Positions 7,506 through 59,380 of a stretch of DNA of 64,000 nucleotides are shown here, in pieces (the first letter of the stretch is position 1; every line of letters begins with the position of its first letter). This DNA is from Sedimentisphaerales bacterium. GTDB taxonomy: Bacteria > Planctomycetota > Phycisphaerae > Sedimentisphaerales > Anaerohalosphaeraceae. The notes under the pieces were generated by a model. The model saw only the letters and a list, made by a program, of their open reading frames with translations. It did no database searches and was not told where the DNA came from. The position numbers and the translations under genes were made by a program. The stretch covers positions 1,685-65,684 of the forward strand of contig JAFGGE010000002.1 in assembly GCA_016930745.1 (NCBI GenBank), in the 5' to 3' direction.

Positions 7506-9614
7506 ATGAATTATCAGTGCATAACGATTTCTCTCTTTCTCGTATCGTTGCAGGGTGTACCCGTATTTAGCGGGGAGGACCTGTCCGGGCTAATCGAATC
7601 GGCCCTGGAGCGAGCCGGGGATAATGCGGTTTCGCTTCAGAAAGCTCTTGAAGATGCCCCTCAAAATCAGAAAGAAGGCATCCGGTTTCTTATTGCGTAT
7701 ATGCCCGATCATGACCTGAAAAGTCTTTCCGCCGAATTTCTGTTGAACCAGATTCGGTTTGCCTATCAGGCATGGAACGAGGTGCTGTGGAAGGACAGAA
7801 TCCCGAAAGAGATATTTCTGAACGATGTGCTCCCTTATGCCAGTATCAATGAGCGGCGTGACGATTGGCGGCAGGATTTCTACGAACGTTTTAAACCGCT
7901 CGTGGCCGACATGGATTCGCCTGGCCGAGCCGCCGCTGTATTGAATCAAAAAATATTTTCCATGCTGCAGGTCAAATTCTCGCGCGGACGCCCAAAGGCC
8001 GACCAAAGTCCCTATGAAACAATCCAGGCGGGCATGGCCTCGTGTACGGGTTTGTCGGTGGTATTGGTCGATGCCTGCCGGGCCGTTGGCATACCGGCAC
8101 GGTTTGCCGGCACCCCGCAGTGGGCCGACAGGAGCGGAAATCATTCCTGGGTGGAAATCTGGGATGGAAAGTGGCATTATATGGGCGCTGCGGAACCAGC
8201 CGGAGAGGAACTGGATCAGGCATGGTTTACGGATCGGGCGGCCACAGCCCTAAAGGACAGTCGTCTGCATGCGATATACGCCGCCAGTTATCAGCCGACA
8301 GGAGTAAAGTTTCCCCTGGTCTGGGACCGCCGAGCGGATTACGTCCATGCGGTGAACGTTACGGAACGTTATACAAAGCCGCAGAAACGCGAGGGAGAAC
8401 AGGCCCCTTCAACAGGCAGTCGGAAACCATTTGACATGGAGGCGTCTCTTCATGCCGTAGCGCAATTAGAGGCATACTTGAAAACGGCTCGAAACGAACG
8501 GCTTGCGCTCGGGGAGCAGGGATTTGCCGCCGTCGCGCTCACACGGGAGCATGCAAAAAAAGCCGAACAGTTGCTCTGGGACGATCACGTTCAAAAGATC
8601 AAACAAACCCGTGCGGAAGAGATGGAGGCGCGCCTGTTAAAGGCGGGAGATCTCCAGATGCCCTTCTATTACACAGTATCCGGCGACAAACCGGATAGTG
8701 GGCGAAGCCTATTCATCTCCCTGCATGGCGGCGGCAGCGCGCCGAAACGAGTCAATGACCGGCAGTGGGAGAACCAGAAACGACTCTATCAGGTGGACGA
8801 AGGCGTGTATCTGGCGCCCCGTGCGCCCACGGATAGCTGGAACATGTGGCATCAGGCGCACATGGACGGCTTATTGGATCGATTGATCGAAAATTTGATC
8901 GTATTCGAGGATGTCAATCCAAACCGCGTGTACCTGCTGGGATATTCGGCGGGGGGCGACGGCGTGTATCAGTTGGCGCCGCGGATGGCGGATCGATTGG
9001 CGGCAGCGGCAATGATGGCCGGCCATCCCAATGAAGCGTCTCCTTTGGGCCTGCGAAACATTGCCTTCTCGATTCACGCAGGCGGGAAGGATTCGGCATA
9101 CAATCGAAATGAAGTGGCCCGTCAGTGGGGGCAAAAACTTGACGATCTGCAGAGGGACGATCCTGACGGATACGTTCACTGGACCAATATCTATGAGAAT
9201 AAAGGCCATTGGCTCGATGGAGAGGATGCCGCCGCTTTATCCTGGATGGCCGGGTATACGCGAAATCCTCTGCCGAACCGTATTGTGTGGAGGCAAGACG
9301 ATGTAACCCATTCGCGTTTTTATTGGTTGGCGATACATGAACAGGAGCGGCACGCCGGGGCTGTAGTGATCGCAGAGGTGAAGGGGCAGCAATTTACCAT
9401 ACAGGCAGATGGAATCCGTCAACTGATCATCCGCGTTAACGACCGTATGTTGGATATGGACGAAAATGTCATGGTTATGCTGCAAGGGAAAGAACTCTAC
9501 AGAGGCGTTATTCCTCGATCCATCGGTATTCTGGCCGGGACGCTTTCTGAGCGGGGGGATCCCGCAACGGTCTTCAGCGGTGAAATTACAGTCGCAATGC
9601 CAAATCCAAAGTAA
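7506..9614 (+). CDS. secreted transglutaminase-like / alpha-beta hydrolase (esterase) fusion protein
   Basis: It has a signal peptide. The transglutaminase-like core has Cys (GMASCTGLSVVLVDACRAVGIPAR) and His (NHSWVEIWDGKWHYM). The C-terminal hydrolase has a GxSxG elbow (LLGYSAGG), then GGKD and NKGH. Confidence 0.7.
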   Translation: MNYQCITISLFLVSLQGVPVFSGEDLSGLIESALERAGDNAVSLQKALEDAPQNQKEGIRFLIAYMPDHDLKSLSAEFLLNQIRFAYQAWNEVLWKDRIPKEIFLNDVLPYASINERRDDWRQDFYERFKPLVADMDSPGRAAAVLNQKIFSMLQVKFSRGRPKADQSPYETIQAGMASCTGLSVVLVDACRAVGIPARFAGTPQWADRSGNHSWVEIWDGKWHYMGAAEPAGEELDQAWFTDRAATALKDSRLHAIYAASYQPTGVKFPLVWDRRADYVHAVNVTERYTKPQKREGEQAPSTGSRKPFDMEASLHAVAQLEAYLKTARNERLALGEQGFAAVALTREHAKKAEQLLWDDHVQKIKQTRAEEMEARLLKAGDLQMPFYYTVSGDKPDSGRSLFISLHGGGSAPKRVNDRQWENQKRLYQVDEGVYLAPRAPTDSWNMWHQAHMDGLLDRLIENLIVFEDVNPNRVYLLGYSAGGDGVYQLAPRMADRLAAAAMMAGHPNEASPLGLRNIAFSIHAGGKDSAYNRNEVARQWGQKLDDLQRDDPDGYVHWTNIYENKGHWLDGEDAAALSWMAGYTRNPLPNRIVWRQDDVTHSRFYWLAIHEQERHAGAVVIAEVKGQQFTIQADGIRQLIIRVNDRMLDMDENVMVMLQGKELYRGVIPRSIGILAGTLSERGDPATVFSGEITVAMPNPK

Positions 9615-53843: not shown

Positions 53844-54515
53844 ATGATACGGTGTCGGACAATTCTATATGGCATGTTGACGGGCGCAGGATTTTTCTGC
53901 TGCGGCTGCAATATATTCGGCTGGGCTACCGCCCCGACGCGCCATGAGCAAAAAGTGCCCGCCCAATTCCGACTTAAGGATGTCCAGGAACGCAACATTG
54001 TCGTGGTCGTCGATCTGGCCTACGCTTCCAGGGTTCCTCCTTCCGTACGACAGGAACTGGTCCATCTGATCAATGGGCATCTGGTCCAGCGGGCCGGTCT
54101 TAATAAACGGTATCTGGTGGCGGCGGCCGACTCGCCCGAAAGGGCGAAAATCGATGAACTCCAAGAAGAATCCCCCGAGCAGATTGGCAGGCTTGTCAAA
54201 GCGGGACTCGTATTGTTCGTCCGGCTGGAAGACTACCGAGAGGATCCAATGAGCCATCCCGGTTTCCTGTCGGCGTCTGTGACAAGTCGGGCCATGCTGA
54301 TCGATACCGAATCCGGCCGGACCCTATGGCCGATGAATTCGGAAACCCATCTGACACGGGTGAAAGTGGAAGCGGAAATTAAAGGTCGGGAAAACGCCCT
54401 GGAACGACTGGCAAAGGCGACATCGCATTGCATTGTTCGAAACCTGTACGACTGTCCCCGGGACACGTACAAGATTGCCGAGGAACAAAGCGATGTTCCG
54501 ACAGAAGTATGGTAA
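53844..54515 (+). CDS. putative lipoprotein, unknown function
   Basis: It has an N-terminal hydrophobic segment with a Cys cluster (GAGFFCCGCN). The start is 5 nt after the preceding gene. No family was recognised. Confidence 0.45.
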   Translation: MIRCRTILYGMLTGAGFFCCGCNIFGWATAPTRHEQKVPAQFRLKDVQERNIVVVVDLAYASRVPPSVRQELVHLINGHLVQRAGLNKRYLVAAADSPERAKIDELQEESPEQIGRLVKAGLVLFVRLEDYREDPMSHPGFLSASVTSRAMLIDTESGRTLWPMNSETHLTRVKVEAEIKGRENALERLAKATSHCIVRNLYDCPRDTYKIAEEQSDVPTEVW

Positions 54516-54541: not shown

Positions 54542-56131
54542 ATGTATAGAATTTTGATTACCGACAAACTGGCCCAGGAGGGCATCGATCTGATCAACAG
54601 CATGGATGGATTTGAGGCCGTTATTAAAAAAGGCGTCAGTGAAGAGGAACTGGCCTCCATCATCGGAGAATACGACGGCCTGATTATTCGCAGCGATACC
54701 AAGGTCACCGCCAGGGTGCTGGAAAAACCCGGCAAGCTCAAAGGCGTGGCCCGCGCCGGCGTAGGCGTGGACAATATCGATGTGCCGGCCGCCACGAAAA
54801 GGGGCGTGCTGGTGATGAATACGCCCGGCGGTAATACGCTCAGCGCCGCCGAGCACACGATGGCCCTGATGCTGGCTTTAAGCCGCAATGTGGTCCCGGC
54901 CTGCAGCAGCCTCAAACAAGGGGCATGGGATCGTAAAAAATATATGGGCAACCAGCTCAACAACAAAGTGCTGGGCGTCATCGGACTGGGACGCATCGGC
55001 ATGGCCGTCGTTAAAATGGCCCTGGGTTTCAACATGAAGGTGCTTGGGTACGATCCCTTCGCCGCTCCCAAAGAGGCCCAGGAGCTGGGGATAACGATCA
55101 CCGAAGATTTGCAGCGGATCTATAAGGAATCCGACTTTATTACCCTCCATGTTCCCAGGAACGAGCAGACTCTCAATATGATCGGCGCCGAACAATTGAA
55201 AATCATGAAACCCACCTGTCGGATCATCAACGTCGCACGAGGGGGGATCGTCAACGAAAACGATTTGTACGACGCCGTCAAAAAAGGCACCATTGCCGGA
55301 GCGGCGCTGGACGTCTTTACCAAGGAACCTCCCGATAATCTGGGATTCCAGGAAATCGGCAATTGTCTGGTGACGCCGCATCTGGGCGCCAGCACCGAGG
55401 AGGCCCAGACCGAAGTGGCCGTCGAAGCCGCTCAAATCCTCTGCGACGCCATTAAGGGCGGTCCGATCAAGAACGCCTTGAACGCCCCGGCCATCGGCGC
55501 CGGCGCCCCTCCGATCGTGACCCACTATGCCGAACTGGCGCGGCGGATCGGAACCATTATCAGCACGCTGACGCCGGAACCGGTTAAAAGCGTGCGGGTG
55601 GAATACCGCGGGGAAATCGCCGAAAAAGAGACGGCGGTCGTTACCACCTCTTTTTCCATCGGCTTGCTCCAACCGCATTTTGATATGCCCATTAATATGG
55701 TTAACGCCGGATTGATGGCTAAGGAGCGGGGAATCAGCATTGATGAAATCAAGAATGCCGATGTGAAGGATGTTCTCAGCAGTTTTACCGCCTGTGTCGA
55801 AACAGAACGACGGAAGCGTTCGATCCGGGGAACGGTCTTTGGCCGCGGTTTGCTGCGGATCATCGAAATCGACGGCTTTACCGTGGAAGTCACGCCGGAA
55901 GGGACGCTTCTGGTAATCTTTAACGACGACAAACCGGGCGTAATCGGGGCCGTCGGAACGGTATGCGGCAAACACGGGATCAATATCAGTACGATGGGCG
56001 TCGGGCAGAAGCTTAAGGAAAAAAAGGCGGTCCTGGCCGTCAGTCTCGACAAAACGCCCGACGAGGCGACCATACAGGCGCTATCCGATCTCGATTTGGT
56101 CAACGAATTATATGTCTGTAAACTGAGTTGA
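54542..56131 (+). CDS. serA: D-3-phosphoglycerate dehydrogenase (long form with ASB and ACT domains)
   Basis: Motifs are MYRILITDKL..., the GVIGLGRIGMAV NAD loop, ARGGIV and PHLGAST. The C-terminal ACT-like region is LLVIFNDDKPGVIGAVGTVCGKHGINI. Confidence 0.95.
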   Translation: MYRILITDKLAQEGIDLINSMDGFEAVIKKGVSEEELASIIGEYDGLIIRSDTKVTARVLEKPGKLKGVARAGVGVDNIDVPAATKRGVLVMNTPGGNTLSAAEHTMALMLALSRNVVPACSSLKQGAWDRKKYMGNQLNNKVLGVIGLGRIGMAVVKMALGFNMKVLGYDPFAAPKEAQELGITITEDLQRIYKESDFITLHVPRNEQTLNMIGAEQLKIMKPTCRIINVARGGIVNENDLYDAVKKGTIAGAALDVFTKEPPDNLGFQEIGNCLVTPHLGASTEEAQTEVAVEAAQILCDAIKGGPIKNALNAPAIGAGAPPIVTHYAELARRIGTIISTLTPEPVKSVRVEYRGEIAEKETAVVTTSFSIGLLQPHFDMPINMVNAGLMAKERGISIDEIKNADVKDVLSSFTACVETERRKRSIRGTVFGRGLLRIIEIDGFTVEVTPEGTLLVIFNDDKPGVIGAVGTVCGKHGINISTMGVGQKLKEKKAVLAVSLDKTPDEATIQALSDLDLVNELYVCKLS

Positions 56132-56206
56132 TTGGAGATGGAGAAATTCCTTCGCTTGTAGCGGAAATCATTGCCGGATAACATTGGCTCAAAAGGAGTA
56201 CCATGG

Positions 56207-58012
56207 ATGGCACGGAAGGCCAGACAAACCAATCAGTTATGTTTTGGTTTTGACCAAGCCGAAAAAGGGAAAGTCGCCACCCTTGAAGAGAAGGAGACGA
56301 TAGAATCTCCTGAAGCAAAAACGCAGATGGCAATGATAAATCCGTCGTCGAAGAGAAAAAAAGAGGAAAAAGCAGCCCGGACACCCGGTGTCCGGGCTGC
56401 CGGCGTTTCCAAACGCGGCAAGAAACAGCAAGCGGCCACGGCCGAATCCATGGCCGCCAGACAGCGGGACATCAGCGTCAGCGAATTTTTTGCCAAGAAT
56501 CGCCACCTGCTGGGATTCGACAATCCGAGAAAAGCCCTGTTGACAGCGGTTAAAGAGGCCGTCGATAACTCGCTGGATGCCTGTGAAGAAGCTCATATTC
56601 TGCCGGATATCCGAATATCCATCCGGCCAATAGAAAATTCCGACAACAAATTCAAGGTTAACGTCACGGACAATGGGCCGGGAATCGTCAAGGCCCAGGT
56701 CCCCAACATATTTGCTCGTTTGTTGTACGGCAGCAAGTTCCATACGCTCAAGATGAGCCGCGGCCAGCAGGGCATCGGGATCAGCGCTGCGGGCATGTAT
56801 GGATTGCTGACCACCGGGGCGCCCGTACAGATCATGACCCGCACCAATCCTTCCAGACCGGCCGTGCATTATCACGTGCAAATCGATACGACACGAAACC
56901 GTCCCGAAGTGGTCCTGGACGAGGAATGCCAGTTCGACCTGCCTACCGGAACCAGCGTTACGATTTCTCTGGAAGGGCGATATCAGAAGGGCAAACAATC
57001 GGTCGATGAATACGTCGCGCAAACGGCGATGGCCAATCCCCATGCCAACATCGTCTACCATGCGCCGGACGGGACGAGCATGACATATGAACGCCAAAGC
57101 CATGAAATGCCTTTCATCCCGATCGAGATCAAACCGCATCCGTACGGAGTCGAATTGGGCGTCCTCTTTAAAATGGCCCGACAGAGCTCCTCCAAAACGC
57201 TCTCGGAGTTTCTCCGGCATGACTTTTCGCGGATCAGCCCTCGTCTGGCGACGGATATTGTTAAAAAGGCCAAACTCTCCTCCCGCCTCAAACCGAACAA
57301 AGTGGTTGTCAAGGAAGTGGAAAAGCTGCATGAAGCGATCAATACCACCAAGATCATGGCTCCTTCCAGCGACTGCATCGGTCCGATCGGCGAAGAAAAA
57401 CTTGTGGAAGGCCTCCAGCGCGTAGTCGAAGCCCGGTTTTATACCGCCTGTACCCGCAAGCCATCGGTTTACCGCGGCAATCCATTTTTGATCGAGGCGG
57501 CCCTGGCCTATGGATGCAGGGACGACAGCGATAAATCCAACGGCGATTCCGACAAAGAGCCCATGATGCGGCTGGTCCGTATCGCCAACCGGGTGCCCCT
57601 GCTGTATCAGCAGTCGGCCGGGGCGATTTATAAAGCCGTGCTGGAGACCAACTGGCGCAACTATGGATTGTCCCAAAGCAGGGGGGCTCTGCCGGCCGGT
57701 CCCCTGGTCCTGATGGTGCATGTCGCCTCGGTGTGGGTCCCTTTCACCTCCGAAAGCAAGGAGGCCATCGCCCATTACCCCGAGATCATCAAGGAAATCA
57801 AGCTGGCCGTTCAGGAGTGCGGACGAAAGCTCGGACTGCACCTCCGACGGCAGCGGCGCGTGCACGAAGAGATGAAAAAACGATCCTATATCGAAACCTA
57901 TCTTCCCCCCATTGGGGAAGCCCTTCGCGATATTTTGGCCCTCAAGGACAACCAGGTCGAGAGGGTCGTGGAAAAATTAAAAGAAACGCTGGAACGCTCT
58001 CGAAAAGTGTAG
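56207..58012 (+). CDS. top6B: DNA topoisomerase VI subunit B (GHKL ATPase) with a basic N-terminal extension
   Basis: It is collinear with archaeal Top6B: SVSEFFAKNRHLLGFDNPRKALLTAVKEAVDNSLDA (Bergerat N-box), VTDNGPGI, LLYGSKF, RGQQGIGISAA, the H2TH region IKPHPYGVELG and the transducer (YRGNPFLIEAALAYG, RIANRVPLLY, VHVASVWVPFTSESKEAI). The in-frame ATG at 56207 lies 8 nt after AAAAGGAG. Confidence 0.85.
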   Translation: MARKARQTNQLCFGFDQAEKGKVATLEEKETIESPEAKTQMAMINPSSKRKKEEKAARTPGVRAAGVSKRGKKQQAATAESMAARQRDISVSEFFAKNRHLLGFDNPRKALLTAVKEAVDNSLDACEEAHILPDIRISIRPIENSDNKFKVNVTDNGPGIVKAQVPNIFARLLYGSKFHTLKMSRGQQGIGISAAGMYGLLTTGAPVQIMTRTNPSRPAVHYHVQIDTTRNRPEVVLDEECQFDLPTGTSVTISLEGRYQKGKQSVDEYVAQTAMANPHANIVYHAPDGTSMTYERQSHEMPFIPIEIKPHPYGVELGVLFKMARQSSSKTLSEFLRHDFSRISPRLATDIVKKAKLSSRLKPNKVVVKEVEKLHEAINTTKIMAPSSDCIGPIGEEKLVEGLQRVVEARFYTACTRKPSVYRGNPFLIEAALAYGCRDDSDKSNGDSDKEPMMRLVRIANRVPLLYQQSAGAIYKAVLETNWRNYGLSQSRGALPAGPLVLMVHVASVWVPFTSESKEAIAHYPEIIKEIKLAVQECGRKLGLHLRRQRRVHEEMKKRSYIETYLPPIGEALRDILALKDNQVERVVEKLKETLERSRKV

Positions 58013-58021
58013 GAAAACGTC

Positions 58022-59380
58022 ATGCCGGAACTCATTATCAGCATCAGCGGGATGCGGGGAATCATCGGAGAAAACCTGCATCCGGAAATCGCCGCGCGGT
58101 ATGGGGCCGCCTTCGGGACCTTCTTGAAAGCCGGCGGCAAAAACGGCCCGGTTTGTATCGGTCGGGATTCTCGTCCGTCCGGACCGATGCTGGCTTCGGC
58201 GCTGGCATCGGGAATCATGAGCGTCGGTCTGGATGTGGTTGATCTGGGCATCGTCACAACGCCCACCGTCGGAATTCTGGTTCGTCATCTGGATTGTGCC
58301 GGCGGCGTAGTGGTCACCGCCAGCCATAATCCGATCGAATACAATGGGATCAAACTGCTGCTGGATAACGGAATTGCACCGCCCAAACCCCTGGCCGAAC
58401 AGATTCGTTCGATGTATCTGGAAGGCAAATCCGGACCGGTCTCTTCCATCGACTGCGGAACGTGCACGCCGGCCGAAGACCCGGACACGATCCATATCGA
58501 TAAGGTTCTGTCGATTGTCGATGTGGAATCGATCTCCGCCTGCAATTTCAAGGTGGTTCTGGACAGCGTCAATGGGGCCGGCGGACGTCCCGGCGTCCGT
58601 CTGCTGCAAAGTCTGGGCTGTCAGATCGTCCAGGTCAATACCGAACCGAGCGGCCTCTTTGCCCATACCCCCGAGCCGACGGCCGAAAACCTCAGGGATT
58701 TGTGCACGCAGGTCACACAAGCCCGGGCGCATATCGGTTTTGCCCAGGATCCCGATGCCGATCGACTGGCCATCGTCGATGAGACCGGACGCTACATCGG
58801 CGAAGAGTACACCCTAGGCCTGGCCGCCAGGCTGGTCTATATGGAGCGGAAAGGCACAGCCGCCGCCAACCTTTCCACCTCTCGGATGATCGACGACATC
58901 GCCTCGCAAAGCGGTGGCAAAGTGATTCGCACGCCGGTTGGCGAGGCCAACGTGGCCCAGGCGATGATCGAAAATCACTGTGTCATCGGCGGCGAAGGCA
59001 ACGGCGGCGTGATCGATCTGCGGATCGGACCGGTGAGGGACAGCCTCGTGGCCATGGCGATGGTCTTACAGCTCATGGCCAGAACGGGAAAACCTGTCGG
59101 CGTTCTGGCCGACGAAATCGGCGGTTATGATATGCATAAAAGTAAATTTTCCGCCGACCCGCAGCAGGCACGCCGGATCATCGATAAGGCGAAAATGGTC
59201 TTTTCCAAGGCAAAAATCGATGAGTCGGACGGCTGTCGTTTCGACCTGCCGGATGGCTGGATTCACCTTCGAACCAGCAATACCGAGCCGGTCATGCGCT
59301 CAATCATTGAAACACGGCGTCCGGAGATAACGCAACGATACCGAGACGCTGTGGATCAGATCCGAAACGAAATCGGATAA
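58022..59380 (+). CDS. phosphohexomutase (PGM/PMM/GlmM superfamily)
   Basis: Motifs are SGMRGIIG, the active-site TASHNPIEYNGIKL, the Mg loop FAQDPDADR and the sugar loop GGEGNGG. Confidence 0.85.
   Translation: MPELIISISGMRGIIGENLHPEIAARYGAAFGTFLKAGGKNGPVCIGRDSRPSGPMLASALASGIMSVGLDVVDLGIVTTPTVGILVRHLDCAGGVVVTASHNPIEYNGIKLLLDNGIAPPKPLAEQIRSMYLEGKSGPVSSIDCGTCTPAEDPDTIHIDKVLSIVDVESISACNFKVVLDSVNGAGGRPGVRLLQSLGCQIVQVNTEPSGLFAHTPEPTAENLRDLCTQVTQARAHIGFAQDPDADRLAIVDETGRYIGEEYTLGLAARLVYMERKGTAAANLSTSRMIDDIASQSGGKVIRTPVGEANVAQAMIENHCVIGGEGNGGVIDLRIGPVRDSLVAMAMVLQLMARTGKPVGVLADEIGGYDMHKSKFSADPQQARRIIDKAKMVFSKAKIDESDGCRFDLPDGWIHLRTSNTEPVMRSIIETRRPEITQRYRDAVDQIRNEIG

Follow-up and report, generated by a model that had tools for sequence, protein, structure and literature searches.

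A Sedimentisphaerales topoisomerase VI whose B subunit is encoded apart from its A subunit and carries an N-terminal arm with a putative sliding-clamp-binding tip

Can the B subunit of topoisomerase VI (Topo VI) belong to a working enzyme when no A subunit is encoded beside it, and what would an extra N-terminal tail add to it? Both questions are raised by the top6B gene at 56207..58012 (+) of a stretch of DNA from a Sedimentisphaerales bacterium of the family Anaerohalosphaeraceae (assembly GCA_016930745.1, contig JAFGGE010000002.1). This stretch, 64,000 nucleotides in all, is called the window below. A first-pass annotation of its letters had called the gene a bacterial Top6B, had remarked on the missing A subunit as an oddity and had described a basic, low-complexity N-terminal tail of about 95 residues. 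The open reading frame (ORF) is a bona fide Top6B, and judged from the sequence as a whole it is best explained, with high probability, as supplying the ATPase (B) subunit to a functional A2B2 topoisomerase VI.

The coding sequence starts with ATG and specifies 601 amino acids plus a stop codon. Both NCBIfam equivalogs for the subunit score above their cut-offs (NF003218, 660.4 bits against 274; TIGR01052, 509.7 bits against 380.7), and Pfam recognizes HATPase_c together with the complete transducer profile (Topo-VIb_trans, PF09239; 185 bits, profile positions 1-159 of 159). The top match in the PDB is M. mazei Top6B (2q2e_B, 8.7e-138; 45% identity), in which positions 4-508 align with residues 77-591 as a single collinear stretch, and S. 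shibatae Top6B (2zbk_B, 2.3e-88) is a further match. Collinear with these two structures, the N-terminal strap, the GHKL (Bergerat) ATPase and the H2TH region occupy residues 77-385 (56435..57361, +), and the PF09239 transducer domain follows at residues 386-558 (57362..57880, +). The closest public locus comes from a Sedimentisphaerales metagenome-assembled genome (MAG) and is 86% identical.

The residues on which ATP binding and signaling depend are all present. Aligned to 2q2e_B and 2zbk_B, the N-box (E117 and N121), the G1 motif (D155-N-G-P-G159) and the G2 motif or ATP lid (S184-RGQQGIG-191, with G186-QQGIG191) are invariant in 57 orthologues, as are the WRNY stalk motif (residues 483-486) and the switch lysine K518, which lies opposite the lysine of the S. 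shibatae sequence SAGKESIA. The Top6B call of the first-pass annotation is thus upheld, and the ATP lid and switch lysine that it had singled out are conserved. Other GHKL families were excluded, their models scoring far under cut-off (MutL, 20 bits against 180; Hsp90, 16 bits against 455; histidine kinases, 12-18 bits). The Topoisomerase VIII/Mini-A type, in which the A and B modules are fused and carried on plasmids or integrated elements (PMC7671362), was likewise rejected, as A and B are separate genes here and B stands in conserved chromosomal synteny. The start codon is backed by the M-A/T-x-K/R N-termini of the orthologues, with a glutamine at residue 10-11, and a likely ribosome-binding site (AAGGAG, 56192..56197, +) can be read from the sequence 9 nt ahead of the ATG at 56207.

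Homology to the archaeal proteins begins at residue 77, which leaves a bacteria-specific extension of about 76-86 residues. This N-terminal extension is real and appears to be undescribed. We modeled the protein with AlphaFold2 from a shallow, 57-sequence alignment of close orthologues, and drew on the model solely to judge disorder in residues 1-87, confidence in the transducer being only moderate (mean predicted local distance difference test score, pLDDT, 65). Residues 1-87 score 31-37 and have no secondary structure in this model, while the GHKL core scores 85-94. Near the start of the arm lies the putative beta-clamp-binding motif QLCFGF (codons 10-15, 56234..56251, +), an instance of the pattern Q-[LM]-x-[FL]-x-F within the peptide MARKARQTNQLCFGFDQ. 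Residues 17-76 (56255..56434, +) form a variable disordered linker, as defined by pLDDT and orthologue comparison, and its polybasic part (SKRKKEEKAARTPGVRAAGVSKRGKK, residues 48-73) stands just ahead of the catalytic core. The tail of the first-pass annotation is therefore genuine and absent from the archaeal proteins, as had been proposed, but it is 76-86 rather than 95 residues long, and it is not merely low in complexity, since a conserved motif lies within its first 16 residues.

Conservation along the arm is concentrated at its tip. Thirteen relatives share a start of the form M-(A/T)-x-(K/R)-K...Q-(L/M)-x-(F/L)-x-F-(D/E), and across the 57 aligned orthologues Q10 and F15 are invariant, with no further invariant column before A76. 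When the survey was widened to the 120 database proteins closest to this Top6B, the hexapeptide Q-[ML]-x-[FL]-x-F was found in 107, with the glutamine at residue 11 in 93. Eight others have a QxxLF pentapeptide in the same position (QLSLF, QLDLF, QMSLF, QPSLF or QPDLF), and four are gene calls truncated at a methionine inside the motif. Further families of the order show QMTLF, QMELF or a doubled SLFDE, and some Top6B proteins from elsewhere in the Planctomycetota carry DQLNLF, QQDLF or QTTLF. Within the motif the codons vary synonymously from genome to genome (CAG/CAA, TTA/TTG/CTG, TTT/TTC), so the constraint acts on the protein. The orthologous linkers range from 29 to 100 residues (median 58) and consist of 34% K+R and 8% D+E. 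Some loci depart from this plan altogether: L024, L028, L040, L049 and L053 encode Top6B with histone-H1-like tails of AKKP/KKTAKK repeats and no recognizable Q-motif, and L027, L031-L033, L035 and L042 encode Top6B almost without an extension. Such varied tails across the Planctomycetota mark the N-terminus of bacterial Top6B as an evolutionary hot spot.

Clamp-binding peptides include a hexapeptide class, QLxLxL, to which Pol IV (QLVLGL) and the N-terminus of Hda (QLSLPL) belong, as well as the Pol II motif QLGLF and the internal DnaE motif QADMF. The consensus for binding to the bacterial beta clamp is QL(S/D)LF (PMC9690074). QLCFGF agrees with the pattern for a short clamp motif (QL[SD]LF or QLxLx[LF]); it sits in a segment predicted to be disordered (pLDDT <50 over residues 1-87) and is conserved amid variable flanks. 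In DnaE of the same genome, a canonical QMNLF occupies the place where E. coli DnaE has its internal clamp motif. Given the terminal position on a disordered arm, the invariant glutamine and last aromatic residue, the exchange of hexapeptide for pentapeptide among orthologues and the QMNLF of DnaE, we lean cautiously towards the arm tip being a beta-clamp-binding motif that would tether a decatenase to newly replicated DNA.

Some features of the motif and of its distribution weigh against this assignment. Phenylalanine is commoner at motif position 4 here than the leucine of the textbook consensus, and in one member of the family (G037) a weak NTLLD is all that there is. A number of Planctomycetota Top6B proteins bear a basic tail alone or almost no extension, so the motif is not required for a bacterial Topo VI to work. 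Separately, scans of ORF termini in this genome for other clients with the same phenylalanine-rich motif gave chance-like matches only, in a permease and in non-coding frames. DinB was not found by its signature in the genome and MutS is truncated at the end of a contig, which leaves DnaE as the only informative client. Literature searches returned nothing that connects DnaN or the sliding clamp with Topo VI or with bacterial topoisomerases of any kind. No other real-looking gene of the genome than the permease starts with a motif of this kind, and the match is probably due to chance: an amino-acid-permease-like membrane protein, encoded from base 9160 (+) of contig C60 (G000), starts MNAQPKRQLTLFD and so has QLTLF at its cytoplasmic N-terminus.

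The account that survives best beside the clamp motif takes the arm for nothing but a polycationic, histone-H1-like DNA-binding tail, whose conserved tip would have some other partner or act within the molecule itself; it might touch Top6A, bind SMC/ParB-type proteins or dock on the GHKL gate. It is favored by the lysine and arginine content of the linker and by the five loci named above in which the tail is purely K/R/A/P-rich and lacks the Q-motif. It does not explain, however, why two residues should be invariant and keep a constant spacing from Met1, nor why textbook pentapeptides (QLSLF, QLDLF, QMTLF and QMELF) should occupy the same place in orthologues. We regard it as a tentative and rather unlikely alternative. 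Far weaker is the suggestion that the extension is an annotation artefact, with translation starting at Met82 to give a protein of archaeal length and leaving the upstream frame untranslated: an in-frame ATG does stand at codon 82, near the archaeal start point, but M. mazei homology starts at residue 77, before Met82, the frame is open in every orthologue with Met1 placed 9-10 residues ahead of the invariant glutamine, linker indels preserve the frame, motif codons differ synonymously and AAGGAG stands before the ATG, all of which makes this reading extremely improbable.

For the missing partner, we searched the organism's own assembly, a 93.7% complete MAG of 4.1 Mb in 294 contigs, with profiles for the Top6A N-terminal domain (TP6A_N, PF04406) and the Top6A Toprim domain (PF21180). 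Neither the window nor the 69-kb contig that carries top6B contains a match, which agrees with the first-pass annotation having seen no Top6A-like ORF within the 64 kb. The single match in the whole assembly lies on a separate 6.2-kb contig, C281. There, top6A (locus L001, 802-1896, −) is an uninterrupted ORF of 364 residues with three Pfam domains over cut-off (TP6A_N, Topo_VI_alpha and Toprim) and 57% identity to M. jannaschii Top6A (1d3y_A, 1.5e-112). Its catalytic residues are in place, namely R93, the catalytic tyrosine Y97 and the Toprim E/DxD residues E192, D245 and D247. The neighboring genes are a YggS-like gene, a UPF0047 gene and argS. That C281 might be a contaminant was considered and rejected, because the Top6A tree gives the same nearest genomes as the Top6B tree (see below).

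To see how far this arrangement extends, we sampled 41 genomes from the family and order to which this one belongs. Top6B was found in 36 of them and Top6A in 36; both are missing in three, and just one of the two subunits was seen in four, all incomplete MAGs. Not one of the 34 genomes of the order with both genes has them on a shared contig within 400 kb, and in four closed genomes the distances between them are 1.27, 0.48, 0.94 and 1.42 Mb. Outside the order the genes lie within 5 kb of one another in 112 of 130 genomes, comprising 11 of 12 from other orders of the Phycisphaerae and 101 of 118 from other classes of the Planctomycetota. In maximum-likelihood trees of A and of B the order forms one clade each time (Shimodaira-Hasegawa-like approximate likelihood ratio test support 99), and the trees share the inner groups (G025, G038), (G040, G034) and (G000, G019, G013, G002). 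For both subunits, G019, G013 and G002 are the genomes nearest to that of the window. As the genes are split throughout the order and mostly adjacent elsewhere in the phylum, unlinking is a derived trait of the Sedimentisphaerales, an old rearrangement common to the whole order, and as an order-wide feature it is new relative to the literature searched. The first-pass description of Topo VI as sporadic in bacteria does not hold locally, with Top6B in 36 of the 41 relatives and, in a sample of the phylum, Top6B in 155 and Top6A in 159 of 301 Planctomycetota genomes.

The concern of the first-pass annotation, that this is an orphan or neofunctionalized Top6B acting without Top6A, draws on the absence of top6A from the 69-kb contig, but an intact Top6A with all catalytic residues in the same assembly, the co-occurrence and co-loss of A and B across the 41 relatives, their congruent phylogenies and the conservation of the transducer and K518, with which Top6B contacts Top6A and signals to it, leave it with next to no credibility. 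With a canonical top6A elsewhere in the genome and a phylogeny that agrees with that of top6B within the order, the locus is half of a split operon and no orphan, and the supposed oddity, a B subunit lacking its partner, falls away.

What such an enzyme does in this cell is suggested by its complement of type II topoisomerases. One GyrA-type gene (with the GyrA-box QGRGGKG) and one GyrB-type gene are present, and no second GyrA/GyrB-type pair that would represent topo IV was found in the 93.7%-complete assembly; because the MAG is incomplete, this falls short of strict proof that topo IV is lacking, which counts against the functional reading. Topo VI has already been catalogued in the Sedimentisphaeraceae and Anaerohalosphaeraceae (Allen & Maxwell 2024, PMC11302465). 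The same survey reports that bacteria with Topo VI outside the Pseudomonadota and Terrabacteria have gyrase and lack topo IV, proposes Topo VI as the substitute decatenase in such bacteria and states explicitly that the role of bacterial Topo VI is an open question; gene order, N-terminal extensions and the motif are not mentioned in it (PMC11302465). Topo VI is described as a preferential decatenase (PMC8837201). With gyrase and no topo IV, Topo VI is most likely the decatenase of the cell. Gene content thus makes it most likely that Topo VI replaces topo IV here, both as decatenase and as relaxase of positive supercoils. The enzyme and its occurrence in the order are already known, and under its first description, that of an orphan B subunit, the finding is an ordinary one.

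From what is known of the family, the two B subunits would dimerize on ATP and capture one DNA duplex, upon which the transducer would signal to the A subunits. A second duplex would be cut by Tyr97 with Toprim-bound Mg2+, and the first would be passed through it, completing ATP-dependent strand passage by the A2B2 enzyme. The arm, made up of the QLCFGF tip, the 60-residue disordered linker and the polybasic patch, may dock Topo VI on DnaN clamps left behind on nascent DNA. The ATP-gate side of the enzyme would then be tethered to the clamps, with the polybasic shaft adding non-specific affinity for DNA, and decatenation would be placed just behind the fork. On the sequence evidence, it seems slightly the better guess that, after its transfer from archaea, Topo VI became connected to the bacterial replisome when Top6B gained an arm with a DnaN-binding tip and a polybasic shaft.

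Compared with the archaeal enzymes (M. mazei 2q2e and 9o0g, S. shibatae 2zbk, M. jannaschii 1d3y), the Sedimentisphaerales Topo VI has the same GHKL-H2TH-transducer order and the same catalytic and ATP-binding residues. M. mazei Top6B has a C-terminal Ig-like domain that the Sedimentisphaerales protein lacks, whereas the latter adds the disordered, motif-bearing arm of 76-86 residues and is encoded by a gene that is not adjacent to its partner. The 2024 survey (PMC11302465) covers this very enzyme in this very order, with the same gyrase-only gene content and the same proposed role as substitute decatenase; order-wide unlinking and the motif-tipped tail are the additions made here.

Like the motifs of known clamp clients (Pol IV, Hda, Pol II and DnaE), the Top6B motif is a short peptide of the form Q-L/M-x-hydrophobic-x-hydrophobic; it stands at the very tip of a disordered segment, and orthologues interchange it with the pentapeptide. 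In contrast to them, the Top6B motif favors phenylalanine over leucine at positions 4 and 6, and Top6B is a putative client, proposed from its sequence. The recruitment of E. coli topo IV occurs through ParC-MukB. Eukaryotic Topo II-alpha is listed among the partners of PCNA, and the bacterial clamp partners given in the same review include no topoisomerase (PMC9690074). Both of these systems embody the concept proposed here, that of a decatenase tethered on newly replicated DNA by a protein-protein contact, although the enzyme in our case is of type IIB rather than IIA, and tether and partner differ.

The deeper history of the two subunits shows some further features. Planctomycete Top6A proteins fall into two deeply separated clades (L066-L069 and L071-L073 against L001, L015-L017 and L059-L065). 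The Top6A of this genome is 62-70% identical to one clade, 57% to M. jannaschii and 31-37% to the other, more distant clade, which includes other orders of its own class, the Phycisphaerae. Their Top6B partners show no such division: those of the two clades are similarly close to this Top6B (53-61%) and together make up a single clade beside DPANN archaea (Aenigmarchaeota). Replacement of the A subunit in one lineage, or a great difference in its rate of change, would account for this. For Top6B, the archaeal representatives nearest to the bacterial clade are DPANN members (Aenigmarchaeota, Nanoarchaeota and Diapherotrites), and no Methanococcales Top6B was located in the search for its nearest archaeal relatives. 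The nearest Top6B representatives at the 50%-identity level (P0122, P0123 and P0128; 54-58% identity) are 1034-1150 residues long. In them the GHKL domain is interrupted beside the ATP lid, at a point corresponding to about residue 178-182 of this Top6B, by an intein that carries a LAGLIDADG homing endonuclease.

The genes around top6B are those named in the first-pass annotation. Upstream lies serA, for D-3-phosphoglycerate dehydrogenase (54542..56131, +; Pfam 2-Hacid_dh, PGDH_inter and ACT). Downstream lies a gene for a phosphohexomutase with PGM/PMM domains I-IV (58022..59380, +; PF02878, PF02879, PF02880 and PF00408), whose ATG is 9 nt from the top6B stop, where a gap of 10 nt had been given, and a CDF cation-efflux gene comes next. 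The order serA - top6B - phosphohexomutase is kept in two related MAGs (L021 2336-7177 and L022 2202-7183), with a 529-residue SerA upstream and a phosphohexomutase of 452 or 453 residues downstream, and the synteny persists in relatives down to 75% Top6B identity. Such very short intergenic gaps suggest that this topoisomerase subunit may be co-transcribed with its metabolic neighbors, serA and the phosphohexomutase gene. Just upstream of serA, an ORF of 223 residues (53844-54515, +) has no Pfam match at E<=1e-5.

For the biology of the order, the separation of top6A and top6B in all its sampled members that have both means that stoichiometric assembly of A2B2 needs no operon linkage. A conserved clamp tag would tell where and when bacterial Topo VI acts, namely on freshly replicated DNA and in the stead of topo IV. 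If the proposal is correct, the known clients of the sliding clamp would gain their first bacterial topoisomerase, a decatenase that follows the fork in place of topo IV, and the tag would show how a horizontally acquired archaeal machine has been fitted to the bacterial replisome.

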